64,000 nt of DNA from an uncultured Solirubrobacterales bacterium (GCA_963824705.1 CAWGQE010000003.1:562286-626285); one strand, 5' to 3'; positions 3,015 to 55,644 are shown, counted from the first letter of the stretch. Numbers and translations are program-made. The notes: a model not told the origin generated them from the letters alone.

Positions 3015-3020
3015 GCGGGG

Positions 3021-8549: not shown

Positions 8550-8588
8550 GGAGCCCGCGGCGGACCCGGTCCGGCCTCGCCGTACGCT

Positions 8589-11011: not shown

Positions 11012-11105
11012 GCCCTGTCGTCGAGCTGCGCGTCTTCACAAAATCTGTATGCGCAGGGGCGCTGAGTTCATGCGCTCTTGATGGGGTCGCACGCATGATC
11101 GGTCC

Positions 11106-11234: not shown

Positions 11235-11344
11235 GCGCGCTGCCTCTAGCCACGCTCTCCGGCGCCGACCTCTTCGGCCTGGTCGTCTCGGCCCTTGTCT
11301 GCGTCTACCTCGTCTACGCGCTGCTGCGGGGGGAGAACCTCTAA
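11231..11344 (+). CDS. kdpF: K+-transporting ATPase subunit F
   Basis: 37 codons, MSALPLATLSGADLFGLVVSALVCVYLVYALLRGENL*. The hydrophobic helix ending in Y.YALLR is KdpF-like. The stop is immediately followed by the kdpA GTG at 11345. Confidence 0.7.
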   Translation: MSALPLATLSGADLFGLVVSALVCVYLVYALLRGENL

Positions 11345-13102: not shown

Positions 13103-13755
13103 TGCGGCGCGACCTGATCACCTCGCTGCTCGCGATCGTCGTCATGACGGTCTTTCTTGGCCTCGTCTACCCGCTGGCGATCACCGGCATCTCCCAGGTC
13201 GTCTTCCCCGGCAAGGCCAACGGCTCCAAGCTGAGCGTCGACGGAAAGATCGTCGGCTCGAGCCTGATCGCGCAGTCCTTTTCGCACCCGGTGCTCGGCA
13301 AGGACGGCAAGCCCGAGCTCGACGAAGAAGGCGAAGAAATCCTCGCTCCGGACAAGGCCTACTTCCAGCCGCGCCCCTCGGCGACCGGCTACTCGGGCAA
13401 CGTCACCTACTTCGGCAACGTCGGCCCGAACTCGGTCGAAGGCCGCGAAGAGGTGCGCGAAAGCCTCGCCTCCTACGTGGCCCTGGAGAAGCCGTTCGAC
13501 CAGGGCCTGAGCAAGGGCCAGATTCCAGTCGACGCGGTGACCCAGTCGGCCTCCGGGGTGGACCCGCACATCTCTGAAGCCAACGCGTCGATACAGGCGC
13601 ACCGCATCGCCGCCGTCCGCAAGCTGCCGCTCGCCCGGGTCGAAGAACTGATCTCCGCCAACACCGACGGACGCTCCCTCGGCCTGCTCGGCGAGCCCGG
13701 CGTCAACGTCCTCGAGCTCAACATCGCCCTCGACAAGGAAGCACCGATCGAATGA
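13102..13755 (+). CDS. kdpC: K+-transporting ATPase subunit C
   Basis: The ATG shares its A with the kdpA stop. N-terminal TM + VYPL...Q..FP..ANGS...F..RPSA...SASG.DP.IS...A..Q...ELN.ALD matches E. coli KdpC along its whole length. Confidence 0.9.
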
Positions 13756-39100: not shown

Positions 39101-39514
39101 TCAGCTGCCCGTTCCGTTTTCGGCGGCGGGCCAGAAGACGGCGATCGCGCCGCGCGACCCATGCGCGGTCTGAATCGGGAAGGCGGAGGCCTCGACCTGG
39201 TGGCGAGTGCCGTCGATCGAGTGGATCTCGAAGTTGGCGTGGGCCGGGCGGTCGTCGCGCACGGCGACGACCAGCGGCAGCTCGTCATAAGGGATCGGCT
39301 CGCCGTTGCCGTCGAAGGGACCGAAGATACGCCCCCACTCCTGCGGGCCGACGGTGCCGAGCTCCTCCCACGATTTGCCGAGCAGCATGCCCGCCGCCTC
39401 GTTGTAGAAGACGAGCAGTCCCCCCTCGTCGACCAGGAAGGCAGGCGTCGACAGGGCCGACATCAGATTGCGAGCAAGAATCAGCTCCAGTGGCTTCTGG
39501 GACGCGGTTGGCAC
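39101..39514 (-). CDS. Stand-alone PAS-domain protein
   Basis: 137 aa with a PAS-like pattern (PAFLVDEGGLLVFYNEAAGMLLG....G). Confidence 0.65.
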   Translation of the reverse strand: MPTASQKPLELILARNLMSALSTPAFLVDEGGLLVFYNEAAGMLLGKSWEELGTVGPQEWGRIFGPFDGNGEPIPYDELPLVVAVRDDRPAHANFEIHSIDGTRHQVEASAFPIQTAHGSRGAIAVFWPAAENGTGS

Positions 39515-39563
39515 GGGAATCTCCTACCCTCGAACGCGGGTGTCTATAGCGGCTGTGACTTTC

Positions 39564-39591
39564 GTCACGTATATCCCATCACTGTAGAAGC
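39564..39591. repeat. Left terminal inverted repeat (28 bp), preceded by TTTC
   Basis: GTCACGTATATCCCATCACTGTAGAAGC is the exact reverse complement of 44181-44208. Confidence 0.8.
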
Positions 39592-39695
39592 GAAATCCGT
39601 CTCTGACGCGCCCTAGCTTCCTTCGCCGTCAACAGAAAAGCGGCCGGGGCGCTGCGTGAACAGCCCCCGGCCTGGCACAGGAAGGGGTACTTCCC

Positions 39696-39980
39696 ATGCA
39701 CGGCAAGGCTAACGGGGCGCGTCCAAAGCGCTCCAATCACGCCCAGGACATCCGCGATCAGAGCATCATGCTCATGCACGTCCTGGCGCTCCATCCAACG
39801 CACCTAATCATCCCCGATCTGGTGCGCGAGCTAATCGGTGATCCCGAGGACTTCGCCGAGGGCGACCGCTACGAGCGAGCGGTCCGTGATCTGACGGGCG
39901 TCGGGCTTCTCCATAGCGAGGGCGGCTTGATCCAGCCGACGCGGGCGGCGCTCCGCTTCATCGAGATTCTGGAGGCGTGA
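39696..39980 (+). CDS. Small hypothetical protein, possibly winged-helix
   Basis: 94 aa; the ATG lies after GGAAGGGG, and its stop lies 1 nt before the XRE gene GTG. The wHTH-like assignment is an impression only. Confidence 0.5.
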   Translation: MHGKANGARPKRSNHAQDIRDQSIMLMHVLALHPTHLIIPDLVRELIGDPEDFAEGDRYERAVRDLTGVGLLHSEGGLIQPTRAALRFIEILEA

Positions 39981-39981
39981 G

Positions 39982-40296
39982 GTGAAGTGCGCTGATCGCT
40001 TCGCCAAGAACCTGCGGCGCTACCGCAGGCGGTCGGGTATGTCGCAGGAACAGGTCGGCCTCCGTGCCCAACTGCACCGGACCGAGATCGGCCTGTTGGA
40101 GCGCGGGGCGCGAGTCCCGCGCATCGACACGCTGGTCAAGATCGCCGCCGCGCTCAACGTCAACCCCGCCGAGTTGTTGGAGGGGATCGATTGGGAGCCG
40201 GGCGAGATCACCGTTGGGCAGTTCATCGAAACCGACGTTCCGGGTCTTGGGATCGTCCATCGCCGGTTTGAGGTTGAGCGTGAGGGCAATGGCTAA
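39982..40296 (+). CDS. XRE-family HTH regulator
   Basis: FAKNLRRYRRRSGMSQEQVGLRAQLHRTEIGLLERG.R.PRIDTLVKIAAAL is the Cro/C1 HTH. Confidence 0.8.
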   Translation: MKCADRFAKNLRRYRRRSGMSQEQVGLRAQLHRTEIGLLERGARVPRIDTLVKIAAALNVNPAELLEGIDWEPGEITVGQFIETDVPGLGIVHRRFEVEREGNG

Positions 40297-40334
40297 CCAC
40301 GGCAGCGGCTCTGTGCTTCATCGAGATCATCGAA

Positions 40335-40376
40335 GGGGCGTTAGCCCGTTCGCCCCGCTTGGGGCGAACGCTTTAA
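40335..40376 (+). promoter_or_regulatory. Hairpin with an alternative pairing between the XRE gene and the membrane-protein gene
   Basis: GTTCGCCCC (40348-40356) / GGGGCGAAC (40361-40369) with loop GCTT, then GCTTTAA. The upstream GGGGCG (40335-40340) could instead pair with CGCCCC (40351-40356). Confidence 0.3.
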
Positions 40377-40379
40377 GCG

Positions 40380-41018
40380 GTGCGACCCCCCCTGACACTG
40401 CACGTCCCGTCGGCCGACGAAAGTGAGACGATAGGTCCTGTGTCGGAACCTGCTGAGTCACCGGCGAATATGCCCATAAAGGGAGGCGACGGTGGGGCAA
40501 CCCAGCTCTCGATCCTCCTCGATGCGGCGACCGCAATCATCGATGAGGAGTTCAAACGCAGCGAACGCCTAGATGCGAAGTCGCGCAACATGATCACGGT
40601 GGCCGGGGCATTCTTCGCGGTCGTTCAGGCCGTCGTGGCCGCGTTGATCAATGAAACGCTTGGTGCGACGGAAACTCAGGCCGCCTCGTCTCTTGTTCCT
40701 TGGCTTGCGGCTGCGGGAGGGATAGCAACGATAGGGCTTGGGATTGCTTTCACTTGGAGCTACGAAGCCTGGAGGCTCCGAAATGACGAAGCGCTCAAGG
40801 TCAAAACGATTCGCGACTACCGAGACGCTGCTTATGCGGGCAATCCAGCCGTTGGGGCGAAGCTCGTTGATGCCTACGCGAAAATTGCCGATGATCGCCG
40901 GGCAGTCAATGCGGAGCGAGCCGTCGCTGTCGATAAGGCTGCGATAGCTTGCGGGATCGCAATGCTTCTAATCGGTACTGAGCTAGTCCTAGCGTTCATC
41001 GCGGTCGCCATTCGGTGA
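40380..41018 (+). CDS. Hypothetical 3-TM membrane protein (candidate effector)
   Basis: 212-aa ORF. An amphipathic helix (IIDEEFKRSERLDAKSRNM) runs directly into TM1 and TM2, followed by a ~60-aa helical region and a C-terminal TM. The start is uncertain (GTG 40380 or ATG 40470). Confidence 0.6.
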   Translation: MRPPLTLHVPSADESETIGPVSEPAESPANMPIKGGDGGATQLSILLDAATAIIDEEFKRSERLDAKSRNMITVAGAFFAVVQAVVAALINETLGATETQAASSLVPWLAAAGGIATIGLGIAFTWSYEAWRLRNDEALKVKTIRDYRDAAYAGNPAVGAKLVDAYAKIADDRRAVNAERAVAVDKAAIACGIAMLLIGTELVLAFIAVAIR

Positions 41019-41905
41019 ACGGCGAGGATCTGCCCGATCCCGCCGACAAAGAACCGGATCTGCCCCCTCCGGAGTTCGAGCCAATCCGAAATTTCGCTGG
41101 CCTGCCAGCTCGCATACGACGACTAGTCGATGACGGCCTTTTCGTTGCTCTTGGCAGGTCGGAAGACAACGCGATCCGAGTAGGGACTCTCTGGGGCTTG
41201 CTGGAGCACCTAGACAAGCTCTTTCATGCGGTTCAGGTGAATAAGTCTGGATCGGACGTCAATCGGCGTGGCGCACTCGCGGCAGTGACGGGGGGGCGGG
41301 AACTGGAGGCACTTCCGTCTCTGCATGGCAGTTATGCGCTCCCACTGCGTTTGACGCCACCCGATGGTCAGATGGTTGGGCAGGAGTACCAGGAGCTAGA
41401 CGCTCTGATCGATCTGTTGGCACCCACCACGGATCTAGAGGAGATGCTTCAGGAGCTACCAGAGCGCATCGGCGACGAGCTGCGAAGACTCTTTGCAGTC
41501 TTGGCAAGCGGTGACACTGGCCTGCGGATGGAACTGGTTCGAAATGGGCAGGCCGTAACGGAGGTTGAGGTTAGGGCTGATGAAGCGCAGTCAAAAGCTG
41601 CTTGGCTCAACGAAAAGACGCCACACGACCTAGGGACGAAAACCCTCCGAGGCAAGCTGTTCCGAATCGACACGAAGAAGAAGGAAATCCGAATCGATGT
41701 CATCGGTGGCACCGATGGCGAGCTGGATGTAGAGAGCGCCATCTTCCAAGATGAGCAACTGGACGAGCTTCGAGAGGCTCTGAATCACCAAGTGGAGATG
41801 GAGGTGTCCGTGTCTGAGGATCGCCGCCCCTACGAACGCTCCGTGACTAGTCCTACGCTCCGTGTCGGTTGGGTGCGTCGGGTCGAGGGCGAGGGCGTGA
41901 ACTAA
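41015..41905 (+). CDS. Hypothetical 296-aa soluble protein, translationally coupled to the membrane protein
   Basis: The GTG at 41015 overlaps the upstream stop (GTGA). I recognise no motif. Confidence 0.6.
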   Translation: MNGEDLPDPADKEPDLPPPEFEPIRNFAGLPARIRRLVDDGLFVALGRSEDNAIRVGTLWGLLEHLDKLFHAVQVNKSGSDVNRRGALAAVTGGRELEALPSLHGSYALPLRLTPPDGQMVGQEYQELDALIDLLAPTTDLEEMLQELPERIGDELRRLFAVLASGDTGLRMELVRNGQAVTEVEVRADEAQSKAAWLNEKTPHDLGTKTLRGKLFRIDTKKKEIRIDVIGGTDGELDVESAIFQDEQLDELREALNHQVEMEVSVSEDRRPYERSVTSPTLRVGWVRRVEGEGVN

Positions 41906-42058
41906 GCCTCGTCGGCGACCAACTCCCGCGTAGGCCAAAATCTCGCCCTCGATCATCCGCATCCTTAAACTCAGCACAGATGGCCGATCGCAAGCAGAAG
42001 ACGAACAAGGGACTCGAGATCCCGGTCCCGACTAAAGGCGACTTCGACGCTGCTGTGT

Positions 42059-42262
42059 CTAAGGTCGCTCCGCCAGCAGGTCGTAAACGCCCTGGCGGGA
42101 AAGACCAGCCTCCAAAGCGATCTGAGTGACCGGGACCCCAGCATCCTGCGCTTCCTTGCAGTAGCGCCGTAGTTCGTCCGTCGCTTTGTGGCGGGCGGCA
42201 TCGGCCCGCTCGCGGCTCTTGGCGGCTCGCCGGATGCCCTTGATTGCGGCGGCGTCTTTCAT
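42059..42262 (-). CDS. Small HTH protein coupled to the transposase
   Basis: 67 aa; ATGA overlap with the transposase stop. The C-terminal VTQIALEAGLSRQGVYDLL looks like an HTH. Confidence 0.5.
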   Translation of the reverse strand: MKDAAAIKGIRRAAKSRERADAARHKATDELRRYCKEAQDAGVPVTQIALEAGLSRQGVYDLLAERP

Positions 42263-43206
42263 CGCGGAGAGCGAGCAGCGTTGTCGAGCAGGGCGAAGAA
42301 CATCCCCCGGCCGTCGCGGCGTTGGTTGTAGCGCCAGGCGTACTCGTCCAGGTAGGACTGAAGCCATTTCTGCGACACCTTCTTGTAGGTGCCGCGCATC
42401 CCGGTCTTGAGGTTGCCGAAGAAGCCCTCAATCGTGTTCGTGTGGATATCGCCGTGGACGTAGACGCCCGCCGAGTGGTTGATGATGCTGTGGCCTGCGT
42501 ACTCCCGGCCAAGCGGCCGGTAGGAGCGCCAGTCGTCCGTGAAGATGATCGATTGTGGGTTGACGTTCGCCCGCACGGCTCCACTCAGCGGCTCGCCTCG
42601 ACGGGACTTGATCACGCGCAGCTTGACCCGCCCGCCACGCTCGACCATGCCCAGCACCGAGACCTGGCGCTCGCGCCACTGAGCAGCTTCTTTTTTGGTC
42701 ATTCGCGGCCCGCGTGGGCGACCGTGGACGCCGGTCTCGTCAACCTCGACCTTGCCCTTCAACGGCTTGGCGTCGTCCTTCATCAACTCGTTGCGGATCT
42801 TGTTGAACATGCGCCAGGCGGTCTTGTAATGAACCCCAAGCTCTCGCTCTAGCTGTTTCGCGGATATGCCGCATCGCGTACTCGTCATCAAGTACATGGC
42901 GTAGAACCAAAGCTGAAGCGAGGTCGAGGACTTGTGAAAGATCGTGCCGGCCGTGGGATGCACGTGGTGCCCGCAGCCGGTGCAGGTCCATGACTGCCGC
43001 CCTTGCTTGGTCGCGTAGCGCTTGAAGACCCGCTCAGAGCCGCATTTGGGGCAGTAAGCGTGTTCTCCGTCCGGGGAATGCCGAGTGCGCCATAGATGCT
43101 CCAGGCAGGCGGCATCGTCGGGGAAGTCCCGCAGGAACTCCGTAACCGAATAGTCCGAAGTCGAGGACTTCGCTCGGCGCGGTTCGTGGCGGTTGGCAGG
43201 TGGCAT
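42259..43206 (-). CDS. IS1595-family (ISXO2-like) DDE transposase
   Basis: N-terminal zinc ribbon CPKCG...CTGCGHH, then VEVDETGVHG, IIFTDDWRSY and NTIEGFFGNLKTGMRGTYKKVSQKWLQSYLDEYAWRYNQR. Confidence 0.9.
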   Translation of the reverse strand: MPPANRHEPRRAKSSTSDYSVTEFLRDFPDDAACLEHLWRTRHSPDGEHAYCPKCGSERVFKRYATKQGRQSWTCTGCGHHVHPTAGTIFHKSSTSLQLWFYAMYLMTSTRCGISAKQLERELGVHYKTAWRMFNKIRNELMKDDAKPLKGKVEVDETGVHGRPRGPRMTKKEAAQWRERQVSVLGMVERGGRVKLRVIKSRRGEPLSGAVRANVNPQSIIFTDDWRSYRPLGREYAGHSIINHSAGVYVHGDIHTNTIEGFFGNLKTGMRGTYKKVSQKWLQSYLDEYAWRYNQRRDGRGMFFALLDNAARSPR

Positions 43207-43212
43207 AGTGTA

Positions 43213-43241
43213 AAGTTACTTGACACAAGATCATTTGTCAA
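43213..43241 (-). promoter_or_regulatory. Candidate promoter giving a leaderless transposase mRNA
   Basis: On the minus strand: TTGACA (43241-43236), a 17-nt spacer, TAACTT (43218-43213), 6 nt, then ATG at 43206. A second TTGACA faces the other way (43220-43225), and the two form the palindrome CTTGACA-N10-TGTCAAG. Confidence 0.45.
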
Positions 43242-43264
43242 GCAGCTTTACGAAGGGATGGCGA

Positions 43265-44131
43265 ATGCGGGAGGAAGCACCATCGCTGGATAGTGCTTTT
43301 GAAAAGCTGAGGCGAGGACTAGAGCACTTCAACTCGATTGAGCAAGCGAGCGACGTCGCAGTCAAAGCGAGCGCCAAGGCCCCATTTGTCGAAGACGATG
43401 GCGACTGGAAAGTAGTCGGTATCAGTCTCGGGAAGTTCCCACTCCGCCCCAGCATTATCTCGGGGGACATGGTCCACAACTTGCGCTCCGCTCTTGATCA
43501 TGCGGTTTGGCAGCTGGTCAAGGTCTCCGGGGGTCAGCCGGGAAGCTGGACCTATTTCCCAATTTATGGGAACAAGGACGGCTTCATCAACGATGTCCAG
43601 CAACGGGCCAAGAAGCGAGGTCTCGGGCCGCTGCATGGGATTGAAAAGGGCGGCCCGATATGGACACTCATCGAGAAATATCAGCCGTACAAGAACACCC
43701 AGCTCCCACCTTGGTTTAAACCGCCTCCCGCAGATCCGATCAAGTGGGCGGCGCGTCTGACGCCGCTGGCGACGCTGAGTGCGCTCTCGCGAATCGACAA
43801 GCACCGAACGATCCACGGTTTCAACGTCTTCCCCGCGAGAGGCAAAGCGATCAACGACAGCATCAGATGGAATCCGGACGCCATATTGGTCGAGCAGCGC
43901 GGAGGGCATTCCTTTGACGTGCTCGAAGGTCGCGCAGAGCTTGCGCGGTTCCGCTTCCGGCCCGGCGTCGAGCCAAATGTGCGCGTGACCGGACCAATGT
44001 TCTTGGAGGCAGGATTTGAGGCTGAGTTCAGTCCCGGCGAAAGAATCACCGTCCTCTCTGACGGAATCAAAGCGATGGGTGCAGCCGTCGAAGGGATACT
44101 GACCTCCTTCAAGGAGTTCTTCCCCGAGTAG
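43265..44131 (+). CDS. Hypothetical protein with an Rx4H motif (possible HEPN-like)
   Basis: The ATG at 43265 lies after GAAGGGA. The motif is NLRSALDHAVWQL (R-x4-H), followed later by LSRIDKHRTIH. Confidence 0.5.
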   Translation: MREEAPSLDSAFEKLRRGLEHFNSIEQASDVAVKASAKAPFVEDDGDWKVVGISLGKFPLRPSIISGDMVHNLRSALDHAVWQLVKVSGGQPGSWTYFPIYGNKDGFINDVQQRAKKRGLGPLHGIEKGGPIWTLIEKYQPYKNTQLPPWFKPPPADPIKWAARLTPLATLSALSRIDKHRTIHGFNVFPARGKAINDSIRWNPDAILVEQRGGHSFDVLEGRAELARFRFRPGVEPNVRVTGPMFLEAGFEAEFSPGERITVLSDGIKAMGAAVEGILTSFKEFFPE

Positions 44132-44180
44132 ATCGTCGGCGCGCTCAGCCACCGCCTAGATCGCCCCTCCGAGCCGCTGA

Positions 44181-44208
44181 GCTTCTACAGTGATGGGATA
44201 TACGTGAC
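44181..44208. repeat. Right terminal inverted repeat (28 bp), followed by TTTC
   Basis: GCTTCTACAGTGATGGGATATACGTGAC. Confidence 0.8.
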
Positions 44209-44328
44209 TTTCGTCACTTAGGCAATTTACAGCGCCCACGCTGGCCTGGCGCAATTTGACTCAGAGGTGTCGCAGAAGATTTTGGTTCCGAGCGACACTC
44301 GCGACGCCGCAATCTTTAGGGTGCAATC

Positions 44329-44547
44329 ATGGAGACCATGAGAGAGAGTTGGACCGACGCGCGGCTGGACGACATGAAGCAGGGGATGGATGCTGGCTTC
44401 AAACGGATGGACGAGGACATCAAGGGCTTGCGGACGGAAATGAACCAGCGCTTCGACGGTTTGAATCGAACGCTGCTGCAGATCAGCGGTGGCGTCATCG
44501 CGACCCTGATCGCTGGATTCATGGGCTTGATAGCGACGCAGCTCTAG
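44329..44547 (+). CDS. Small tail-anchored coiled-coil protein
   Basis: 72 aa: a charged helical N-part (RLDDMKQGMDAGFKRMDEDIKGLRTEMNQRFDGLNR) and a C-terminal TM (ISGGVIATLIAGFMGLIATQL). Confidence 0.45.
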   Translation: METMRESWTDARLDDMKQGMDAGFKRMDEDIKGLRTEMNQRFDGLNRTLLQISGGVIATLIAGFMGLIATQL

Positions 44548-44557
44548 GCAGCGCTTG

Positions 44558-45247
44558 TTACAGCGAGGCGAGCAGGAGATCGCTCAGCTCCGGCTCGAGA
44601 TCGTGCAGGCGCTGCGGGTCGCCACCGCCGGCGCGGGTCGATACCAGCGCCATCGCGGCGCCGATCAGGCGGCGCTCCAGCCCGGGCAGCGGTGTTGCCC
44701 TGTCGGGGTCGGTGAGCACGTCGCGCAGCATCGCGCCGAGGCGCTCGATCAGATCGCGGCGCGCGCCGGTCAGCGCCGCGATCTGCGGCGGTGGCTCGGC
44801 GCTGAGCAGGCGGCCGACGTCGGGCTCGGCGGCGAGGAAGCCGAGCGCCGCGGCGATGCCGGTGCGAGCCCGGCCACGCCGGTCCGCCTCGGCGACGGGG
44901 CCGCGCGCCTCGACCAGCGCCGCGCAGGCCCCCTCGATCTCCTCGCAGAGCCGGCTCGCCTCAGTCTCATACGCCGCCAGGAGGCAGGCCCAGAGGTCCT
45001 CGAAGTGCTGGTAGAAGGTGCGGCTGGAGACGCCGGCCAGCTCGGTCACGCGGGCCGCGGTGATGCGGCCGTAGCCCTGCTCGGCGACGGCCGTCGCCGC
45101 TGCCTCGAGCAAGCGCAGGCGCTGGTGCGCGCGGACCAGGTCGGCCGGGATGCCGTGGTGGCCGGGGGGGAGGCGCAGCGTCGGCACGGCCTCGGCCTCC
45201 GCCGGCTCGGCGAGGGCGGTGCCGGCGACGAGGCGCAGCTCAGTCAT
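44558..45247 (-). CDS. TetR-family regulator (1 of 4)
   Basis: The ATG at 45247 gives MTELRL. LPPGHHGIP...RLRLLEAAATAVAEQGYGRITAARVTELAGVSSRTFYQHF. Confidence 0.85.
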   Translation of the reverse strand: MTELRLVAGTALAEPAEAEAVPTLRLPPGHHGIPADLVRAHQRLRLLEAAATAVAEQGYGRITAARVTELAGVSSRTFYQHFEDLWACLLAAYETEASRLCEEIEGACAALVEARGPVAEADRRGRARTGIAAALGFLAAEPDVGRLLSAEPPPQIAALTGARRDLIERLGAMLRDVLTDPDRATPLPGLERRLIGAAMALVSTRAGGGDPQRLHDLEPELSDLLLASL

Positions 45248-45960
45248 CTCTCCTCGGCCTCTTCCTCGACCCCCGTCAGCCGCGTCCGCTCGCGCTCCAG
45301 CAGCTCGCTCGCCCGCTCGAAGGCGCCTTCGGCCTCCTCCTTGCCGAAGTAGGAGCCGGCGGCGAAGTGCATCAGCTCGGGCAGCGTCTCCCAGAGGCGC
45401 CCCGGATCGCCGGCGCCGAGCGCCTCGCAGACGCAGGACTCGATCCCGCCGACGACGAAGGCGCCGGTCGCCTCCGGCGGTGCCTCGGCGGGGTCGATGT
45501 CGGCGCGGACGCTGTCGATCGTCGCAGCGAGGCGCTCGACCGCGGCCTCGTGGCGGGCCAGCGCCGGCTCGCCGGCGATCTGCACCTCGACGAAGAGCGC
45601 CCTGGAGATCGCCGGCCGCGCGGTGACGAACTGAAAGAGGCGCACTATCGCCTCGCGGACGCCGGCCTCCCACCCCGGAGCGGTCGCCGCCGCTTCGAGC
45701 ACGCTGACACCGAGCCGCTCGATCCAGACCGCGTAAGCCTGGGCGAAGCAGTCCTCCTTGCTCTCGAAGTGCTGGTAGAACTGCGCCCGGTGCCCGCCGC
45801 TGTGCTCGAGGATCGCGCGCACCGAGGTCTCGCGGAAGCCGACCTCGCCGCAGACCGCCAGTACCGCTTCCATCGCCCCCTCGCGCACATCGAGCTCGGA
45901 GCCTTGGTCTGCTCCCAGCGAATCGACCCGATTAGCAGCTGCTGAGGCTTTCGCTGACAT
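45244..45960 (-). CDS. TetR-family regulator (2 of 4)
   Basis: ATG at 45960. AMEAVLAVCGEVGFRETSVRAILEHSGGHRAQFYQHF. ATGA overlap with the next TetR gene. Confidence 0.85.
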   Translation of the reverse strand: MSAKASAAANRVDSLGADQGSELDVREGAMEAVLAVCGEVGFRETSVRAILEHSGGHRAQFYQHFESKEDCFAQAYAVWIERLGVSVLEAAATAPGWEAGVREAIVRLFQFVTARPAISRALFVEVQIAGEPALARHEAAVERLAATIDSVRADIDPAEAPPEATGAFVVGGIESCVCEALGAGDPGRLWETLPELMHFAAGSYFGKEEAEGAFERASELLERERTRLTGVEEEAEER

Positions 45961-46029
45961 ACGCCCTATAAAAACTACTCCTTTTTCGTCAGATATGAAA
46001 TCTTTTTCAAGTCGGCTACTCTCGGAGGC

Positions 46030-46683
46030 ATGCAGTACCTCTCGCAAAGACTGGCGACCAAGCCGTCTCCGCGGCGGGGGAAGGAGACCGACGGGCCGCT
46101 TGCATCGTCCCCGCAGCGCGAGCGGATCCTCGACGCGGCCGAGCGGCTGAGCGCCGAGCGCGGCTGCGCCGGCACCTCGATCGAAGCGATCGTCAAGGAG
46201 GCGGGGGTCTCCTCGGTCACCTTCTACGAGTTCTTCGCCGGCAAAGAAGAGTGCTTCGTCGCCGCCTTCGACCGAGCCGTGGGCTGGGGCATGGAGCGGA
46301 TCGAGGTCGCGATCCGCGAGGCCGGCGAGGCGGGCGAGCTCTCCTGGCCGGAGCGGCTGGCGACCGGCCTGCGGACGACGACGGCCCTCGTCGTCGAGGC
46401 CCCGGCGAGGGCCCGCCTCTGCCTAGTCGAGGCGCAGAGCGGGGGATCCGAGCTGAACGCCCGCTTCGAGGCGACGCTCGACCGGCTCGCGGCGAAGCTG
46501 CGCGAGGGGCGGGCCCTCTCGACGGCGTCGGTTGACCTGCCGGCGACCCATGAGGAGGCGACCGCGGGGGCCCTCGCCTGGTTGCTGCGCGAGCGCCTCG
46601 AGACAGGCGGCGCCGGGAAGCTCGAGGCGCTCTATCCCGAACTGATCGACATCGCCCTGGCCCCGTACCTAGGAGATGGCTGA
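46030..46683 (+). CDS. TetR-family regulator (3 of 4)
   Basis: RERILDAAERLSAERGCAGTSIEAIVKEAGVSSVTFYEFF. Confidence 0.85.
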   Translation: MQYLSQRLATKPSPRRGKETDGPLASSPQRERILDAAERLSAERGCAGTSIEAIVKEAGVSSVTFYEFFAGKEECFVAAFDRAVGWGMERIEVAIREAGEAGELSWPERLATGLRTTTALVVEAPARARLCLVEAQSGGSELNARFEATLDRLAAKLREGRALSTASVDLPATHEEATAGALAWLLRERLETGGAGKLEALYPELIDIALAPYLGDG

Positions 46684-47741: not shown

Positions 47742-48270
47742 GGACCTTCCCTCCGAGCTCGATCGCGGGCCGCTCGACCCAGTGCGCATCTTCGAGGCCC
47801 TCGAGCGCCACGGTGTCGAGTACCTGACGATCGGCGGCGTTGCGGTGAACGCTCACGGCCATCTCCGCAACACGCGGGACGTCGACGTTCTGATCGAGTG
47901 GACGACAGAGAACATGGGACGACTCGCCGTCGCCCTCGGTGAGCTAGACGCAAAGCTCTTCGGGGTCGACGCGGGCCTTCTCGACGTCGATCCACTCGAT
48001 CCCGAGGACCTCTTCAACGGCGGCAACTTCACGCTGCGCACCGCTGCCGGCGGCCTCGATCTCTTCGATCCCGACGAGATCCCCGGTGGGCGCCCCTATG
48101 ACGAGATGCGACCCCGAGCGGTCGAAGCGACCGTCGCAGGAATCCGCATTCGCGCTGTCGGTCTCGACGACCTGATCCGGCTCAAGCGCGAGTCGGGTCG
48201 CGACCGTGATCTCGAGGATGTTGCGACCTTGTTGGCAGCCTCCCGAAAGACCATCGACGGGGAAACTTAG
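47722..48270 (+). CDS. Minimal nucleotidyltransferase-fold protein (putative toxin partner)
   Basis: It overlaps the XRE gene (GTG 47722 or ATG 47734). YLTIGGVAVNAHGHLRNTRDVDVLI fits the hG[GS]x9-13Dh[DE]h NTase signature. Confidence 0.55.
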   Translation: MRSTMLEDLPSELDRGPLDPVRIFEALERHGVEYLTIGGVAVNAHGHLRNTRDVDVLIEWTTENMGRLAVALGELDAKLFGVDAGLLDVDPLDPEDLFNGGNFTLRTAAGGLDLFDPDEIPGGRPYDEMRPRAVEATVAGIRIRAVGLDDLIRLKRESGRDRDLEDVATLLAASRKTIDGET

Positions 48271-48301
48271 AGCCGAAAGCTTTCTTCTCGAAAACTTCTC
48301 C

Positions 48302-48330
48302 TTGCATTTGTAAACTGTTTCTTTTATGCT
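48302..48330 (+). promoter_or_regulatory. Candidate sigma70-type promoter for the giant secreted-protein operon
   Basis: TTGCAT (48302-48307), a 17-nt spacer, TATGCT (48325-48330), within the only AT-rich patch upstream. The hexamer match to consensus is only partial. Confidence 0.3.
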
Positions 48331-48448
48331 GCGCGAGCGCCTTCGAATCAGAGGGCGACAGGGAACGCAGCAACAGGGAAAACCGAGCGCCACGAAGGCC
48401 GCCATGGGAGGCGGCAGGCAGGGGCTCAAGGGACAAGGAGAGAGATAC

Positions 48449-51400
48449 GTGAGACGCCACGCGAGGGCATCGTCTTCGGGATCGAGCAAGCGCCAAGACC
48501 ACGGCGCTCCGCGCCGCCTTGCGCTCGTGGGGGCAGGAGCCCTTGCCCTGCTCATAGCCCTCGCCTCGACCGCCCTCGCCCTGCAGACCCACGCACCGGG
48601 GACCGACGTCGAAGCCCCCGCCGATGGCTTCGGATCCCTCGCGGGCATCGCCACCGATCCGAACTCCCACCAGCTCTACGTCGCCGACTCAGGCTCAAAC
48701 CGGATCGAGGGCTTCTCTTCCTCTGGGGAATTCGAAGGGACCGGAGGTTGGGGCGTCGTCGCCTCCGGACCCGGCAACGTCCCCACCAACGAGCACCAGG
48801 AACTCACGATCGATGCCACCGGCGGCACCTACTCCCTCGCCTATGAAGGCGAACCCACTTCAGCGATCGCCTTTGACGCAACGGCAGCAGAAGTTCAGTC
48901 GGCCCTCGAGGCGATCGCCCAGATAGGCCCCGGCAACGTCTCGGTCACGGGAGCGGCAGGAGGCCCCTATGACATCGAGTTCCAAGGAACGAAAGCCGAC
49001 ACCGACGTAAGTGAGCTGAGTGCAGACCCGACCAATCTCAGCGGTGGAGCACAAAGCGCCACGATCGCCACCACCGCCCAGGGCGCAGACGCCGCGGAGA
49101 TCTGCCTGACCCCCGCGAACACCTGCAAAGCAGGCATCCCCGGCAGCGGCCTAGGCCAGTTCAACGGACCCCAGGACGTAGCCATAGACGCCTCGGGGGA
49201 CTTCTTCGTCGCCGACACCGCCAACAACCGCATCGCCGCCTTCAAGGCAAACGGAGAACCGCTCGCCACCTTCGGCACCGAAGGCCTGATCGACGGCACC
49301 GCAGCACAACCCGGAAGCCAAGACGAAACCCCGGCCCCCGGCTTCTCCTCGCCTTGCGGGCTCGCGATCGACGATTCAAACGGCAACCTCTTCGTCGCCG
49401 ATCAGAACAACAACCGCATCTGGATCTTCGACTCATCAGGCGCCTTCAAAGGCAAAATCGCCGACAGCTCCCTGAACGGTCCCTGCGGGATCGCCTTCGA
49501 CTCAACTGGCGATCTCTACGTCAGAAACGCAAACAACGGCAAGGTCTTGCGCTTCGATCGCAAAGGAGCTGTCGACTACGACTTTGCCTCGACCCTCTAT
49601 GACCCTGAAGCCGAACCCAAAGAACCGGGCGCGACCGATGTAGCGGTAGACACCGCAACCGACCACGTCTACGTCGACAAGGGCGATCGGATCACCGAGT
49701 ACGACTCATCCGGCTCTTTTGTCTCGAGCTTCGCCCAAGGCCACATCAACGCCAGCGCAAGCATCGCGGTCGACTCCACCGACGCAAAGCTCTACGCGAC
49801 CTCTGGCAACCGCATCGCCACCTTCGGGCAGCTGATCACCGTTCCGGACGTAAACACCGGCGAAGCGACCGACATCGCCGATGAAACCGCGACCCTCAGG
49901 GGAACCGTCGACCCCGCCGGGCTTGACACGACCGATTGCCACTTCGAATACGACACCGCTCCCTACGCCGTCGGCGAACCGGGCCACGGTACCGAGGTCG
50001 AATGCCTCTCCGGAGACGTCATCCCCGCCGCCGGGGGAGGCCCGGTCGATGTTGCCGCGCCCGTAGCGGGCCTCGGCCCCGCCACGACCTACCACTTCCG
50101 CCTTGTTTCAGCCAACGCAGAAGGCCAGAACCAGGGCAAGGACCGCAGCTTCACGACGGTCGGTCCCCCGACCGTCGTGCGCACCTTCATAAGCGAAGTT
50201 AGCGCCAAGGCCGCAACTCTCAACGCCGACCTCAAATCCAACGGCGCTGCCACCGACTGGCACTTCGAGTACGTCGGCGACGGCGACTTCCAGCGGAGCG
50301 GCTTCGCCGGCGCGATCGATATCCCGATACCCGACGCGATTCTTGCCGCCGGCACCGCGACGATCACCCTCAGCGAGCCGCTCTCCGGCCTTCAGCCCGG
50401 GGCCCGCTACCACTACCGGATCGTCGCTTCGAACCTTGCCGGACCGCTCGCCGGTCCCGAGCGGAGCTTTCAGACCGACCCGGTCCAGACGCCGGTCGGG
50501 GTAGGCCAGTTCCCCGGCCAGGGCTTCCTGCCCGACAACCGCGCCTGGGAGATGGTCTCGCCTCCCGACAAGAACGGGGGCGGGGTGCGCGCCGGCGCGC
50601 CGACTATGTTTGTCTCCCCCGACGGCAGCCGCGTCGGCTACTCGGCCGCCTCGGCCTTCGCCGACGCTCACGGGACGGGCGAGGCTGGCGACGTGCAGTA
50701 CGGCGCCGCCCGCGGCGCCGGCGGCTGGACGAGCCACGCGATCACCCCGGAATCGGCGCCAGGCTGGACTCAGGCGCTCTCCGGCGTGACCATCGGCTTC
50801 TTCTCCAAGAACGTGACCCGCGCGATGCTGGTGGCCTACGACCTGCCGGGGGCCTCGAACGACATCCCCGAAGGGTCCACGAACCTCTATCGGGTGAACG
50901 CCGACGGGACCGATTTGCAGACGCTGACCACGCCCTTCGATCCCGGCATCACGAATCCGCTGCTCGAATTCGGCCTTCCCAATCGCCCGATTGGCGGCGA
51001 CCCCGACTTCGACCGCCTCTACTTCTCCAGCGCCCAGCCACTACTGGAGGGCGTTCCTGGCTTCCAGGAGAACGTCTACGAATGGGACGAAGGCAGCCTG
51101 CACCTCGCCGGGGTGCTGCCCGACGGCTCGATTCCCCCTGGCGGCTCTCGGGAAGTAATAGAAGGCGGTCGCGGCAGCGAAAACGTCGACACCGTCTCCG
51201 AGGACGGCTCGCGCGTCCTCTTCCTGGCCGCCCCCCCAGGCCTGAGCGACCAGCTCTACATGCGCCGCAACCACACCGACACGGCGTGGATCTCCGAACC
51301 GGAGGGCTCGACCCCGGTGTCCGACCCCCAGGGCGTCAGGTATGAGGCGGCATCGCGCGACCTGCACAGGGTCCTCTTCAGCACCGAATCCCAACTGAAC

Positions 51401-52399
51401 GACGAAGACCCCGGCGGAGGCGGCCGCGCCCTCTACACCTACACCGACTCGCCCGATCCCGAAGCGGAAACGAACCTGAAGTTCGTCTATCGGGGCGGCG
51501 ACCCCGTGGTGGTGGGCACGAGCGTCGACGGCTCAGCCGGCTACTTCTACGACAAAAGCTCCGCCGTGCTCTCTCACTGGGACGCGAGCGGCGTCGAGGC
51601 GGCGGTCGGCAGCGGCGTCTCTGGGATAACCGGCAATCTCCACACGCCGGACGCCAGGGTCAAGGTCTCGGCCGACGGCACGACGATCGCCTTCCTGGAA
51701 AGCAGACAGCTGACCGACGCCGAAATCGGCGGCCAGGCTGATGGCACACAAAACGGGTACGAGGCCCTCTATGTCTATGACTCCGACACCGAAGAGCTTG
51801 CCTGCGCCTCCTGCCCGCCGAGCGGCGCGGCGACGAGTGGGCTCACCTGGCTCTCGCCGCAGGCAAGCGAGGACATCGGACTCTACTTCCCGCTTCAAGC
51901 CCCCCGCTCCCTCTCCGCCGACGGGCGCCGGCTCTTCTTCTCGACTCCGGACGCGCTGGTGCCCGGCGACGTCAACGGCCGCTATGACGCCTACGAGTAC
52001 GATGTCGCCACGGGAGAGCCGCACCTGCTCTCCTCCGGGCACTCCAAATACGACAGCTGGTTCGCCAACGCCAGCGAAAGCGGCGACGACGCCTTCTTCG
52101 TCACCTTCGAGCGGCTCTCGGGCCACGACGTCGACAACGCCAAGGACATCTATGACGCGCGAGTCGGCGGTGGGCTGCCAGAGCCGACCCCCGCCCCGCC
52201 GGCCTGTGAGGGAGACGCCTGCCAGCCGCCGCCGGTCGGCCTGAACGACCCGACGCCCGCCAGTGAAGCTTTCCTAGGCGACGGCAACATCAAGCGGAAA
52301 AAGCAGCGGCACCACCACTCCCACAGGGGTCGCGGTGGCAAGCACAAGCATGGACGACCCCACAAGAAAGCCAATGGCGACCGGAGGGCGGCGAAGTGA
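48449..52399 (+). CDS. Very large secreted protein: NHL-repeat region, two Fn3-like modules, PD40/TolB-like beta-propeller repeats, Cys-containing polybasic tail
   Basis: GTG 6 nt after AAGGAGAG. RR-containing signal peptide (APRRLALVGAGALALLIALAS). NHL-like repeats (YVADSGSNRIEGF, FVADTANNRIAAF, FVADQNNNRIWIF). Fn3-like TYHFRLVSANAEG and YHYRIVASNLAG. PD40-like SPDGSRV, SEDGSRVLF and SADGRRLFF. Confidence 0.8.
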   Translation: MRRHARASSSGSSKRQDHGAPRRLALVGAGALALLIALASTALALQTHAPGTDVEAPADGFGSLAGIATDPNSHQLYVADSGSNRIEGFSSSGEFEGTGGWGVVASGPGNVPTNEHQELTIDATGGTYSLAYEGEPTSAIAFDATAAEVQSALEAIAQIGPGNVSVTGAAGGPYDIEFQGTKADTDVSELSADPTNLSGGAQSATIATTAQGADAAEICLTPANTCKAGIPGSGLGQFNGPQDVAIDASGDFFVADTANNRIAAFKANGEPLATFGTEGLIDGTAAQPGSQDETPAPGFSSPCGLAIDDSNGNLFVADQNNNRIWIFDSSGAFKGKIADSSLNGPCGIAFDSTGDLYVRNANNGKVLRFDRKGAVDYDFASTLYDPEAEPKEPGATDVAVDTATDHVYVDKGDRITEYDSSGSFVSSFAQGHINASASIAVDSTDAKLYATSGNRIATFGQLITVPDVNTGEATDIADETATLRGTVDPAGLDTTDCHFEYDTAPYAVGEPGHGTEVECLSGDVIPAAGGGPVDVAAPVAGLGPATTYHFRLVSANAEGQNQGKDRSFTTVGPPTVVRTFISEVSAKAATLNADLKSNGAATDWHFEYVGDGDFQRSGFAGAIDIPIPDAILAAGTATITLSEPLSGLQPGARYHYRIVASNLAGPLAGPERSFQTDPVQTPVGVGQFPGQGFLPDNRAWEMVSPPDKNGGGVRAGAPTMFVSPDGSRVGYSAASAFADAHGTGEAGDVQYGAARGAGGWTSHAITPESAPGWTQALSGVTIGFFSKNVTRAMLVAYDLPGASNDIPEGSTNLYRVNADGTDLQTLTTPFDPGITNPLLEFGLPNRPIGGDPDFDRLYFSSAQPLLEGVPGFQENVYEWDEGSLHLAGVLPDGSIPPGGSREVIEGGRGSENVDTVSEDGSRVLFLAAPPGLSDQLYMRRNHTDTAWISEPEGSTPVSDPQGVRYEAASRDLHRVLFSTESQLNDEDPGGGGRALYTYTDSPDPEAETNLKFVYRGGDPVVVGTSVDGSAGYFYDKSSAVLSHWDASGVEAAVGSGVSGITGNLHTPDARVKVSADGTTIAFLESRQLTDAEIGGQADGTQNGYEALYVYDSDTEELACASCPPSGAATSGLTWLSPQASEDIGLYFPLQAPRSLSADGRRLFFSTPDALVPGDVNGRYDAYEYDVATGEPHLLSSGHSKYDSWFANASESGDDAFFVTFERLSGHDVDNAKDIYDARVGGGLPEPTPAPPACEGDACQPPPVGLNDPTPASEAFLGDGNIKRKKQRHHHSHRGRGGKHKHGRPHKKANGDRRAAK

Positions 52400-55300
52400 A
52401 TTATCCGAGGAGCATTGCGTTTGCGATTGCGGCCCTTGTCGTACTTTCCTTGACCCCTGTCGCTGACGCCGCGCCACCGCCCCCTGAAGTGACCATCATT
52501 GCCCCCAGTTCGATCGAAGCCGGTGAGCCGGGTGTCGTTGCACCGTTTGTCTTCAACAACTCCAACCAACCTCTCGCCGGCCCGGTCACCATCGTCGAGA
52601 CCGTTTCGCCGGGAGCTGAACTGAGCGCACCGAGCTGTTTCTGCGAGTCGGCACTCGACGAGCTCGCGCGGAGGAAAGACCAGAACTGTGAGCTATCGGG
52701 CCGCACCTGGACCTGCATTGTCGACTTCGAATCGCCGGGGATGCGGGGCGGTGTCCTGCTGCGATCGTCCGATTCCTTTCAAGACGGTCAGTTGATCAGC
52801 GCCGAACCGGGCGCGAGTGGCGACATCACGATCGACGTCCGGGTGACAAGCGCCAATGCGCCTGCCGTCGAAGCTCAGAAGACTGTGAGGATCGGTCCGC
52901 CTGGGCCGTACGAATTCGGTTGGAAGGGTGCGCTCCGCAGGTCGGATCGTTCGCCCTTCGCGACCGCTGGCTCCACCCCGGATAGCTTTCTCACTGACCT
53001 CAGCCAGCCCACCTTCCCCCGTAAAGCCTTCGGAATCTTCCCGGCAGTTACCGATGTCGCCCAGCAGCTCGACGAGGTTGTCGCTCACCTTCCCCCTGGC
53101 TTCATCGGCAACCCGCAGGCTGTTCCCACCTGCCCCTTCGTTGAGCTTCAGCACCATCAGGGAAACACCCCCACCTGTCCTCGCGATTCACAGGTCGGCC
53201 TCGTCAAGCTCTCCGTCGGGGGCTTCACCGGCAGGGATATGCTCACGCCGGCGCTCTTTAACCTCGAACCTTCGGTGGGCTCCCCGGCTCGCTTCGGCTT
53301 TGAGGTTTTCGGCGTGCCGGTCGTCCTCACGGCACGCCTCAACCCCGACGACTACAGCATCGACCTCGTCAGTTCCAATACGAGTTCGACCCTCGCCCTC
53401 TTCGATGCTGAGGTTGAAGTCTGGGGCGTGCCCACTGATCCGAGTCATGACGGGGTCAGAGGTCGCTGCCTCGAAAAAGGTACCGTGAACGGCAACGGCA
53501 ACGAATGCCCCTCCGCCCTGCCTCGCACCGCCTTCCTCCGGACCCCGACCCGCTGTGAGGGTCCGCTTCGTTTCGGCCTTGAAGCAACCACCTACCAGCA
53601 CCCCGAGCTGGTCCACGAGAAGAGCTTCGAATTGCCGGTGCTGCAGGCCTGCGACAAGATCCCCTTCGACCCCGACATCTCGGTCCAGGCGACCAGCCTC
53701 GACGCCGAGTCGCCCACCGGCCTGCACGCCACCGTGCAGGTGCCGAACACCGGCTTGGAAAACCCGGACGCGGTCTCCGAATCCGACATCAAGGCGGTCA
53801 AGGTCGCCCTGCCCCGGGGAGTCACCCTGAATCCATCCCAGGCCGAAGGCCTGGGGGTCTGCACCGAAGCCCAGTATGAAAGCTCAGAACTGAGCTTTCA
53901 TCCCGACGGGACCAAGGGCTGCCCGGCCGACTCCAAGATCGGCACCGTGGAGGTCCACACGCCGCTCCTCAAAGAGACGATCCCCGGCAACGTCTACGTC
54001 GCCAAGCCCTACGACAACCCCTTTGACTCCTTGCTGGCGATCTACGTCGTGCTCGAAGAACCGATGCGCGGCGTCCTGGTCAAACTCGCCGGCAAGGTAG
54101 AACCCGACGAGAAGACCGGCAAGATCGTCACGACCTTCTCCGACCTGCCCCAACAGCCCTTCTCGAGCTTCGAGTTCAAGTTCCGCGAGGGAGCAAGAGC
54201 ACCGCTGGTAACCCCATCGACCTGCGGCACCTACACCACCGATGCCGAGTTCACCCCCTGGGCGAACCCCGACCAGGTGATCAAGCGATCGACCGCCTTC
54301 CAGATCACCAGGGGCATCGGCGGAGCGCCTTGTCCCAAGGGAGCTCCGGGCTTCAAACCGGGCTTCTCGGCAGGTTCGATCAACAACAACGCGGGCTCCT
54401 TCAGCGCCTTCGACATGCGCCTGACCCGCCAAGACGGCGAACAGGACATGACCCGCTTCTCGACCACCCTGCCGCCGGGAGTGCTCGGCAAGCTCGCAGG
54501 AGTCTCCAAATGCCCCGAAACGGCGATTGCGATTGCCAAGGCAAAGACGGGACTCGATGAGCGCGCCAATCCCTCGTGCCCAGCGAGCTCAGAGATAGGC
54601 CACAGCCTCGTCGGAGCAGGCGTGGGCTCGGTCCTCACCTACATCCCCGGCAAGATCTACCTCGGCGGTCCCTTCCACGGCGATCCGCTGAGCGTGATCG
54701 CGATCACCCCGGCTGTGGCGGGTCCCTTCGACGTCGGCACCGTCGTAGTCCACGAGGCACTGACCCTCAACCCGAAGACCGCCGAAGTAGAAGTAGACGG
54801 AGCGGCCTCGGACCCGATCCCCCACATCCTCAAGGGCATACCGGCCAAAGTCAGGGACCTGCGCGTCTACGTCGACAAGCCAAACTTCATCCTCAACCCC
54901 ACCTCTTGCGCGCCAAGCGCGACCGAGGCGACTCTCTCAGGCGGAGGTGCCGACCCCTTCAGCGTCGCCGATGACGTCCCGGTGGCGCTCACCTCGCGCT
55001 ACCAGGCGGCAGGCTGTCAGGGACTCGGCTTCAAACCAAGCCTGGCGCTCAACCTCAAGGGCGGCACCAAACGAGGTGAGTTCCCAGCCCTGAAAGCTCT
55101 TTACAAGCCACGCAAGGGCGACGCGAACGTCAAAGGCCTCGTAGTCCGCCTGCCACGCTCCGCCTTCCTCGAACAGGGCCACATCAGAACGATCTGCACC
55201 AGGGTCCAGTTCGCAGCAGACAACTGCCCCAAGGCATCTGTCTACGGCCAGATCAAAGCCTGGACCCCGTTGCTCGAAGACCCCCTGGAAGGACCTGTCT

Positions 55301-55620: not shown

Positions 55621-55644
55621 ACATGGGCCGATAGCCTTCCGCCG

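Follow-up and report, generated by a model that had tools for sequence, protein, structure and literature searches.

Positions 39566-44206 of a 64,000-nucleotide (nt) stretch of DNA from an uncultured Solirubrobacterales bacterium (GCA_963824705.1 CAWGQE010000003.1:562286-626285; hereafter the window) are very probably one copy of a Solirubrobacterales family of IS1595 transporter insertion sequences (ISs) with GTG-N8-CAC targeting. Passenger-carrying IS1595 elements are already known, and the insertion itself is ordinary; the behavior of the family is not. The evidence for a 4641-bp element at this position consists of its terminal repeats, its base composition and its absence from 68 orthologous loci.

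The G+C content of the segment was 0.606 (60.6 %), compared with 0.680 (68.0 %) for the remainder of the window and 0.70 and 0.68 for its 5-kb flanks, making it the window's lowest-GC stretch and bearing out the lower G+C noted in a preliminary description of this DNA. The left junction (39555-39591) reads GTGACTTTCGTCACGTATATCCCATCACTGTAGAAGC and the right junction (44181-44217) reads GCTTCTACAGTGATGGGATATACGTGACTTTCGTCAC. Within them, a 26-nt terminal inverted repeat at the regulator end (39566-39591, + strand), which reads CAC-GTA-TATCCCATCACTGTAGAAGC, is the perfect complement of the repeat at the C3 end (44181-44206, - strand). The repeats are flanked by identical 8-bp copies of ACTTTCGT (39558-39565 and 44207-44214), the length of which was calibrated on the relative ISAcr1, and these in turn by a host GTG on the left (39555-39557), found once in empty sites, and a host CAC on the right (44215-44217), recognized from the target 14-mers and empty sites. 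Counted differently, the two arms (39564-39591 and 44181-44208) pair perfectly as reverse complements over 28 nt, while the 14-mer GTGACTTTCGTCAC is a perfect direct repeat (39555-39568 and 44204-44217). These junction sequences and repeat positions had been given in the preliminary description, and when checked against the window they were exact. With up to 3 mismatches allowed, the 23-nt core of the repeat occurred at only two places in the 64 kb, and 100 shuffles yielded 0 matches. Scans of the window for tRNA genes and Rfam families found nothing, indicating that the insertion is not at a tRNA or known RNA gene.

We used the neighboring MBL-fold protein to search one-genome-per-species collections, which returned 80 orthologous loci from Solirubrobacterales metagenome-assembled genomes (individual loci and contigs are denoted L plus a number). 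Sixty-eight of the 80 were empty, and 63 of these 68 carried a single GTGA-N6-TCAC box at the insertion position. In nine of the 80, element sequence lay upstream of the PAS gene: a transposase in eight, and a solo end in L129. The empty locus L091 reads ...GCTGTAAATTGCCTAAGTGACGAAAGTCACAGCCGCTATAGACACCCGCGTTCGAGGGTAGGAGATTCCC, which over the compared stretch equals, base for base, the window minus the segment and one 14-mer. The empty site ...CTAAGTGACGAAAGTCACAGCC... that had been predicted from the window was thus recovered, and the segment is an insertion. Contigs with near-identical proteins and a metagenome scan yielded 43 complete elements (39 distinct) of 2.7-5.4 kb.

The element encodes a 315-amino acid (aa) DDE transposase (42259-43206, - strand) that matched PF12762 (DDE_Tnp_IS1595) over the full profile (1-153) at 4.4e-36 and 124.6 bits (cut-off 27), as well as NCBIfam NF033547 at 2.6e-58 and 197 bits (cut-off 75), in agreement with the interior IS1595-family transposase proposed earlier. 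The zinc-ribbon model PF12760 scored 24.0 bits, just below its 25.4 cut-off, and the translation shows a CxxC...CxxC pattern (YCPKCG...CTGCG); NF050000 scored 18.3 against a cut-off of 28. There were ~8000 homologues, and the top 120 were at least 79 % identical and came nearly all from soil metagenomes or named Solirubrobacterales. Exact-sequence look-ups with the transposase and the PAS protein of the window returned no match, which shows that its source genome is missing from the collection searched. Membership of the IS1595 family is secure judging from the catalytic domain and the inverted repeats, and the duplication length is compatible with it. The same repeats, which in this copy are perfect over 26 nt, bound all 43 complete relatives, supporting the earlier suggestion that the whole unit is a passenger-carrying transposon. 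Six open reading frames (ORFs) besides the transposase lie inside the repeats. The count of at least six passenger genes in the preliminary description holds as a count of non-transposase genes; four of them recur in the family, however, and are not free passengers. No internal IS-sized pair of inverted repeats around the transposase gene alone was found on searching the segment, as had also been reported. With a single transposase gene, and a repeat that occurs twice in 64 kb, the unit is not a composite of two IS copies around cargo; instead, passenger genes lie within one pair of repeats, with no transposase-only pair, and the same was true of the 43 relatives. No bare IS was found (0/43): every complete element carries extra genes.

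All 43 complete elements carry a 14-nt sequence on each flank, in 40 cases the same one on both sides. These flanks define 29 distinct target 14-mers, all of the form GTG-N8-CAC, with an N8 that differs from site to site (e.g. AGCACCGT, ATGAAGAT, CGATCGAT and AACGTCCT). Every one of the 29 targets has GTG as its left and CAC as its right outer triplet (58/58 in a symmetrised count). Of the 58 symmetrised cases, 50 had A and T as the first and last duplicated bases and 49 had Y and R just outside GTG and CAC, giving the target logo YGTGA-N6-TCACR. Distant members (65-68 % identity, including one with a different inverted repeat) share the GTG-N8-CAC structure. Likewise, CAC starts every real end among 121 distinct end contexts and is followed by three variable bases and the conserved TATCCCTTCTCTGTAGAAGC, so that the family end consensus is CAC-NNN-TATCCCTTCTCTGTAGAAGC. 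The outer triplet at these end contexts was GTG except in L012 and L052; the L012 end at 11701 has the inner CAC and an outer TTG (TTG-N8 in place of GTG-N8). Since the outer triplets are also the element's own tips, each junction, consisting of host GTG-N8 and element CAC-R, rebuilds the full motif, and one target becomes two.

Regeneration of the box at both junctions explains the ambiguity among 4-, 8- and 14-bp duplications, the occurrence of tandem arrays and the repeated hits on one site. Tandem arrays in which neighboring elements meet at one GTG-N8-CAC 14-mer common to both were seen in L012 (10626-10685), L013 (6259-6318), L056 (5827-5886), L063 (3400-3460) and L074 (4459-4518). Two related arrangements were also seen: at L052 (6662-6717) 10 nt (GTGAGGTCAC) alone separate the two ends, and at L060/L061 two members of the family that differ from each other (76 % and 65 % identity to the query) lie back to back. 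The sequence GTGA-N6-TCAC occurs 4 times in the window, two of these having been created by the insertion, compared with 0.63 expected from shuffles; from base composition (68-70 % G+C), some tens would be expected per ~2.6-Mb genome. The other two matches lie inside long ORFs, are unoccupied, and are uninformative with regard to operators. Overall, 24-28 of the 30 sites examined were intergenic.

Where exactly the element ends is a separate question. All symmetric boundary readings (4, 6, 8, 10, 12 and 14 bp) predict one and the same empty site because the target always has GTG and CAC, and the window alone therefore cannot decide between them: ACTTTCGT fits perfectly as an 8-bp duplication, and the 4-, 6-, 10-, 12- and 14-bp alternatives fit the sequence as well. 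The closest named relative in a plasmid collection is ISAcr1, the transposase of which is 35 % identical. The ends of ISAcr1 read CTT-GCCTATCCGG..., with a GCnTATCC block that begins at position 4, so that its homologous end reads CTT-GCCTATCC compared with CAC-GCCTATCC here. Exact 8-bp duplications, ATATATTG and GACCATAC, flank two ISAcr1 copies; the copy in L167 has no duplication, and the length was taken from the others. IS1595 duplications measure 8 bp as a rule, and 7-9 bp within the IS1016 group (PMC12561309). The homologous end of ISAcr1, together with its 8-bp duplications, points to CAC as the element tip and to ACTTTCGT as the duplication. The best reading is thus an element of 39566-44206 with a CAC tip, 26-bp inverted repeats and an 8-bp duplication, the 8-bp cut spacing being inferred by homology to ISAcr1. 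With the tip placed at CAC, the mismatch with the ~8-bp duplications of IS1595, which had troubled the preliminary description, disappears.

Both boundary readings offered in that description fare less well. In one, the same element is inserted with a 14-bp stagger, such that the entire GTG-N8-CAC is duplicated and the element has 23-bp repeats starting G(T/C)NTATCCC. Such a stagger predicts the same empty site as the 8-bp reading, and it matches the 14-nt length of the flanking direct repeats, the copies of which agree fully in 40 of 43 elements. It would nevertheless have the element start with three variable bases and leave the invariant CAC to the host, and it is at odds with the L012 end, where an inner CAC meets an outer TTG, with the position of the homologous GCCTATCC block at IS position 4 in ISAcr1, where duplications are 8 bp, and with the duplication lengths reported for IS1595 and its IS1016 group (PMC12561309). 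We consider a 14-bp stagger unlikely. The other reading invokes 28-bp repeats with a 4-bp TTTC duplication, or insertion directed by the hairpin GTGAC-TTTC-GTCAC. At this one site the GTGAC and GTCAC arms are indeed complementary, extending the perfect repeat to 28 nt; however, the bases adjoining GTG and CAC are not complementary at other sites (e.g. GTGAGCACCGTCAC, GTGCGCGGCATCAC and GTGATGGATCCCAC). Because N8 is non-palindromic elsewhere, both the 28-bp repeat and the "target hairpin" arise by chance at this particular site. Moreover, the enzyme is a DDE transposase, and neither Y1/HUH nor any other hairpin-dependent transposase is involved, leaving a hairpin-based account with hardly any probability. 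Targeting of hairpins or single-stranded DNA of the IS200/IS605 or IS91 type was rejected for similar reasons: the enzyme is of the DDE class, and from site to site no palindromy is conserved beyond GTG(A)...(T)CAC.

The position occupied in the window has a history of its own. The box upstream of the PAS gene is occupied by an element in at least 20 related genomes or contigs, in both orientations and at sizes of 2.9-5.6 kb. Inverted-repeat variants differ among these elements, some of which have one end of each type, and the duplication tracks each host's box variant (GTGACATTCGTCAC, GTGACATCCGTCAC or GTGACTTTCATCAC). For L105, identity to the window is 85 % in the flank against 92.7 % in the transposase gene and 94 % in the C1-C2 regulator module; for L002, it is 94 % in the flank against just 72 % in the C1-C2 regulator module. 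Occupancy of one locus in so many relatives could be taken to mean that the segment is an old island resident at this locus, passed down vertically and removed precisely from most lineages by recombination between the 14-bp direct repeats. Those repeats could support rare precise deletion, and DNA identity of the transposase gene (88-93 %) spans a range like that of the flanks (85-94 %). Against this stand the two orientations at the site, the match between each duplicated box and the host's own variant, the discordant module and flank identities of L105 and L002, the interleaving by similarity of filled hosts with empty ones (68 of 80 loci), and the presence of the family at 29 or more different sites. 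A single ancient event is accordingly very improbable; occupancy of the PAS site is the product of repeated insertions and inter-element recombination. The mixed ends and discordant module identities suggest recombination between different elements at the same site.

Several further observations concern these occupied sites. The PAS-site elements of L002, L003, L007 and L093 each have one window-type end and one L001-type end, with ...CCCATCACTG... at one end and ...CCCTTCAGTG... at the other. In L087 (CAWFXB010000002.1), the closest genome with a flank 94 % identical, the regulator module is 95 % identical to that of the window, and the transposase at 7551-8823 was recovered by tblastn in three pieces and appears frameshifted. 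A second chromosomal site (GTGATGGATC[C/G]CAC) is occupied in different contigs and in opposite orientations (L037, L041 and L058), and recurrent use of a box is thus not unique to the window's locus.

The box at the site of this copy, GTGACGAAAGTCAC, is a conserved palindrome resembling an operator and lies upstream of an operon encoding a PAS protein, an MBL-fold hydrolase and an HD hydrolase. Across the 68 empty loci, the best-conserved columns upstream of the PAS gene are the half-sites TAAGTGA and TCAC (80-99 %), and the 6-nt spacer between them is variable. Conserved half-sites with a variable spacer are usual for the binding site of a dimeric regulator. The box TAAGTGA-N6-TCAC was found ~40-90 nt upstream of the PAS gene start (window 39101-39568; empty loci L088-L166) and is kept in 63 of the 68 species without the element. 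The consensus of CRP, TGTGA-N6-TCACA, is conserved across distant phyla (PMC10187061), and the target logo YGTGA-N6-TCACR resembles it. By this resemblance, the box of the PAS operon looks like a CRP/GlxR-type operator. The MBL-fold hydrolase has weak similarity to cyclic-nucleotide phosphodiesterases (NF041851 at 2.3e-7 and PF02112 at 2.7e-3), and the third gene of the operon encodes an HD_4/SpoT-like hydrolase; the PAS/MBL/HD_4 operon may therefore serve nucleotide second-messenger turnover under cAMP control. A regular-expression search for the CRP-type recognition helix [ST]RE[TS][VIL][STNG][RK] found no match in the sequences collected here.

These features raise the possibility that target choice is guided by a protein other than the transposase, either a host regulator of the CRP family that binds the box and bends GTGA-N6-TCAC, or an HTH (helix-turn-helix) protein of the element itself (the 67-aa protein, or the XRE or winged-helix (wHTH) regulator) acting in the manner of TnsD in Tn7. 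The likeness of the logo to the CRP consensus (PMC10187061), the operator-like conservation of the PAS-operon box, the mostly intergenic location of the sites, the adjoining MBL gene with its phosphodiesterase matches and the presence of the 67-aa HTH gene in 39 of 39 elements are all in keeping with such guidance. However, the invariant GTG and CAC are the element's own tips, and the simplest account is that the transposase active site reads both; in addition, no CRP-like gene was found in the collected sequences, and the two further GTGA-N6-TCAC matches in the window, inside long ORFs, are unoccupied. Guidance by another protein is thus possible, albeit less likely than reading by the transposase, which would probably recognize the target itself. 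More speculative still is an "operator-homing" transposon, which would recognize CRP-type boxes directly, via CRP-bent DNA or through its own HTH protein, cut just inside GTG and CAC, and leave an intact box at both junctions, amounting to a shuttle for defence- and toxin-antitoxin-like genes wired into a global regulon. Were this tentative scheme correct, the host operon would keep its operator, the inward-reading regulator and cargo operon of the element would adjoin a box, the outward terminator would insulate the host, and the regenerated boxes would permit stacking and module exchange.

Beyond its target, the family shares a modular plan. With the transposase drawn left to right, the usual layout is the left end, cargo position A (leftward), the transposase, the 67-aa HTH gene and cargo position B, followed by the XRE and then the winged-helix gene (both leftward), a hairpin and the right end. 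The family is mosaic: relatives share with this copy by blastn only element positions 1 to ~715-770 (the regulator module) and ~2411-3690 (the HTH and transposase genes). The 67-aa HTH protein (42059-42262, - strand) is encoded by a core gene, the ATG of which overlaps the transposase stop codon (ATGA), and tblastn found it in all 39 distinct elements; its matches were PHROG 686 ('HTH DNA binding protein'; 1.5e-7) and the HTH of a DNA invertase (1.3e-3).

At the opposite end from cargo position A are two regulator genes. Module C1 encodes a 94-aa winged-helix-like protein (39696-39980, + strand), found by tblastn in 32 of 39 distinct elements. It had no match in Pfam, PADLOC, NCBIfam or PHROGs, and was modeled by AlphaFold2 at pLDDT 87 with an H-H-H-beta-beta-H layout; Foldseek aligned the model with IclR, MarR and ArsR winged-helix domains (probability ~1, E 0.01-0.1). 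Module C2 encodes a 104-aa XRE-type HTH regulator (39982-40296, + strand; PF01381 at 4.7e-13), found in 28 of 39, and its best PADLOC match is a restriction-modification 'Control_protein' (1.9e-15). Between the element end and the wHTH gene lies an outward terminator-like hairpin (39632-39673, - strand) with the stem GGCCGGGGGCTG/CAGCGCCCCGGCC followed by CTTTTCTGT. In 30 of 39 distinct elements, a G+C-rich hairpin lies ~105 nt in from the regulator end, with a T-rich tract after it on the strand that reads outward; compensatory changes affect 6 of 10 stem pairs and include whole-arm swaps from GGG/CCC to CCC/GGG. The hairpin would act as a terminator that keeps transcription of the transposase strand out of the host PAS operon. 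On the other strand it is followed within a few bases by the Shine-Dalgarno sequence of the wHTH gene, and it could also act in the wHTH 5' leader. A sigma-70 promoter scan of the element returned no site, and a terminator scan returned no more hits than shuffles, missing the conserved hairpin, the loop and tail of which fall outside the scan rule.

The cargo of this copy consists of three genes. A 212-aa protein (40380-41018, + strand) has hydrophobic segments, read by eye, that are probably membrane-spanning, and its stop codon is overlapped by the start of a gene for a 296-aa protein (41015-41905, + strand). This pair is the sole cargo unique to this copy, being absent from the 38 other distinct elements. 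Neither protein had a match in Pfam, PADLOC, NCBIfam or PHROGs, and the 296-aa protein had no significant match to PDB sequences (best E 0.032). Cargo position A, divergent from the transposase, holds a gene of family C3 as defined by clustering, which encodes 288 aa (303 aa from an upstream TTG; 43265-44131, + strand). This ~300-aa gene was present in 16 of 39 elements by tblastn and in 26 of 43 by clustering, other genes otherwise taking position A. The family has the invariant motifs GDxxHNLRSxLDH and DKHR, and its AlphaFold2 model is confident (pLDDT 90, pTM 0.86). No Foldseek match in the PDB had E below 1, no match was found in Pfam, PADLOC, NCBIfam or PHROGs, and neither a Pfam scan of each of the 35 alignment members nor a search of the alignment profile against PDB sequences returned anything. 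The family may have a novel fold or constitute a nuclease-like group not described before, and one might guess by eye that NLRSxLDH represents an R-x4-H (HEPN-like) motif.

Cargo of the relatives includes an N6_N4_Mtase+Mrr_cat fusion, NYN, SLFN_AlbA_2+HATPase_c_4, DUF6731, a SocA_Panacea antitoxin domain, Peptidase_M78 (ImmA/IrrE), a proteasome-like protein, an HNH nuclease, a GAF-domain protein with an N-terminal hydrophobic stretch, and a pair in which a weak RexA match sits beside a membrane protein. Judged by these domain matches, the repertoire looks typical of defence and addiction genes, and the cargo may have a role of that kind. PADLOC matched the XRE 'Control_protein' alone in this copy, and no complete known defence system was identified in this copy or its relatives.

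Taken together, these results suggest the following course. The DDE transposase, probably aided by the translationally coupled 67-aa HTH protein, would act on the 26-bp CAC-starting repeats and insert the whole unit with an 8-bp target duplication. Landing is not random: the duplicated 8 bases have to be flanked by GTG and CAC, usually within YGTGA-N6-TCACR, these being the same trinucleotides as the tips, such that each junction rebuilds the full target box. The cargo plan comprises the wHTH/XRE pair reading inward from one end, the outward terminator and two variable cargo positions, filled in this copy by the pair of membrane protein and 296-aa protein and by the ~300-aa protein, and in relatives by defence-like and toxin-antitoxin-like genes. 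Several points weigh against this interpretation. An 8-bp cut is inseparable by sequence alone from one of 10, 12 or 14 bp, and the 8-bp call draws on end homology to ISAcr1, the transposase of which is only 35 % identical. The flanking 14-mers are non-identical in 3 of the 43 elements (L019, L044 and L052). Survivorship bias may have inflated the excess of intergenic sites. Seven to 11 of the 39 distinct elements have no wHTH or XRE gene, and these genes are thus not essential in cis. Finally, all copies of the family come from metagenome assemblies.

To the right of the insertion site, a 72-aa ORF (44329-44547) is followed by an array of TetR-family regulator genes (window 44558-46047 onward), of which L002 has four (10961-13737). 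Farther along, G+C is moderately lower (0.64) at window positions 48001-50000 and 52001-56000, where GC skew is strongly negative and AT skew is positive, and the latter stretch contains a 1074-aa ORF (52396-55620).

An invariant, palindromic target that copies the element's tips amounts to a simple sequence rule for landing sites, and it accounts for repeated, independent insertions at one conserved operator in different species, as well as for tandem arrays and mosaics. If the boxes are true CRP-type operators, the transposon would home to binding sites of transcription factors and yet leave them intact, which would bear on how mobile elements avoid harming their hosts and tap into host regulation. 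The compact chassis with two exchangeable positions also provides a catalogue of candidate defence and toxin genes from a poorly studied order of soil actinobacteria, including the confidently folded ~300-aa family without a match among solved structures. In the literature searched, with ISfinder outside the comparison, we found no IS1595 element with a GTG-N8-CAC rule and no transposon that targets CRP sites. Nor did we find a report of a transposon target with a likeness to CRP-type operators, of independent insertions recurring at one conserved operator in different species, or of a fixed chassis that combines a constant HTH gene, two regulators, an insulating terminator and a pair of exchangeable cargo positions.

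The family can be compared with several known systems. CRP/GlxR operators of the form TGTGA-N6-TCACA (PMC10187061) have a logo similar to that of the targets, and the PAS-operon box shows operator-like conservation; no CRP gene was found among the collected sequences. Tn7-like transposons with defence cargo (PMC8649781) are likewise site-selective, spare host genes and carry variable, defence-rich cargo, but the present elements lack TnsABC/D and a single attachment site, are much smaller (3-5 kb) and rely on one DDE transposase. ISAcr1 shares the DDE_Tnp_IS1595 transposase, with a putative N-terminal zinc ribbon (just below the Pfam cut-off here), and the three terminal bases followed by GCnTATCC at both ends, and has an 8-bp duplication on two copies; it differs in being a plain ~1.07-kb IS without passenger genes, with a transposase 35 % identical, and its flanks show no GTG/CAC pattern or requirement. 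The ends of this copy (CAC-GTA-TATC), of most relatives (CAC-GCC-TATC) and of ISAcr1 (CTT-GCC-TATC) all fit nnnGcnTATC, the ISfinder end consensus of the ISSod11-type group. IS1595 transporter ISs with passenger genes, in the ISNwi1+, ISPna2+ and ISNha5 groups, were reportedly described by Siguier, Gagnevin and Chandler in 2009 (cited in PMC12561309). These groups too combine one transposase with passengers inside one pair of repeats, have no flanking IS copies and reach several kb; a fixed modular layout and a strict target may set the present family apart. Symmetric targets are used by IS231A (GGG-N5-CCC), Tn10/IS10 (NGCTNAGCN) and IS30 (a palindromic hot spot, or its own inverted repeats). 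Like those elements, the present family selects a palindromic target that is centered on the duplication and resembles its own termini, and it occurs in tandem or abutted copies; in contrast to them, it uses a transposase of another family, and its triplets are invariant at 29 sites and not just preferred, flank the duplication without being part of it and are restored at each junction.

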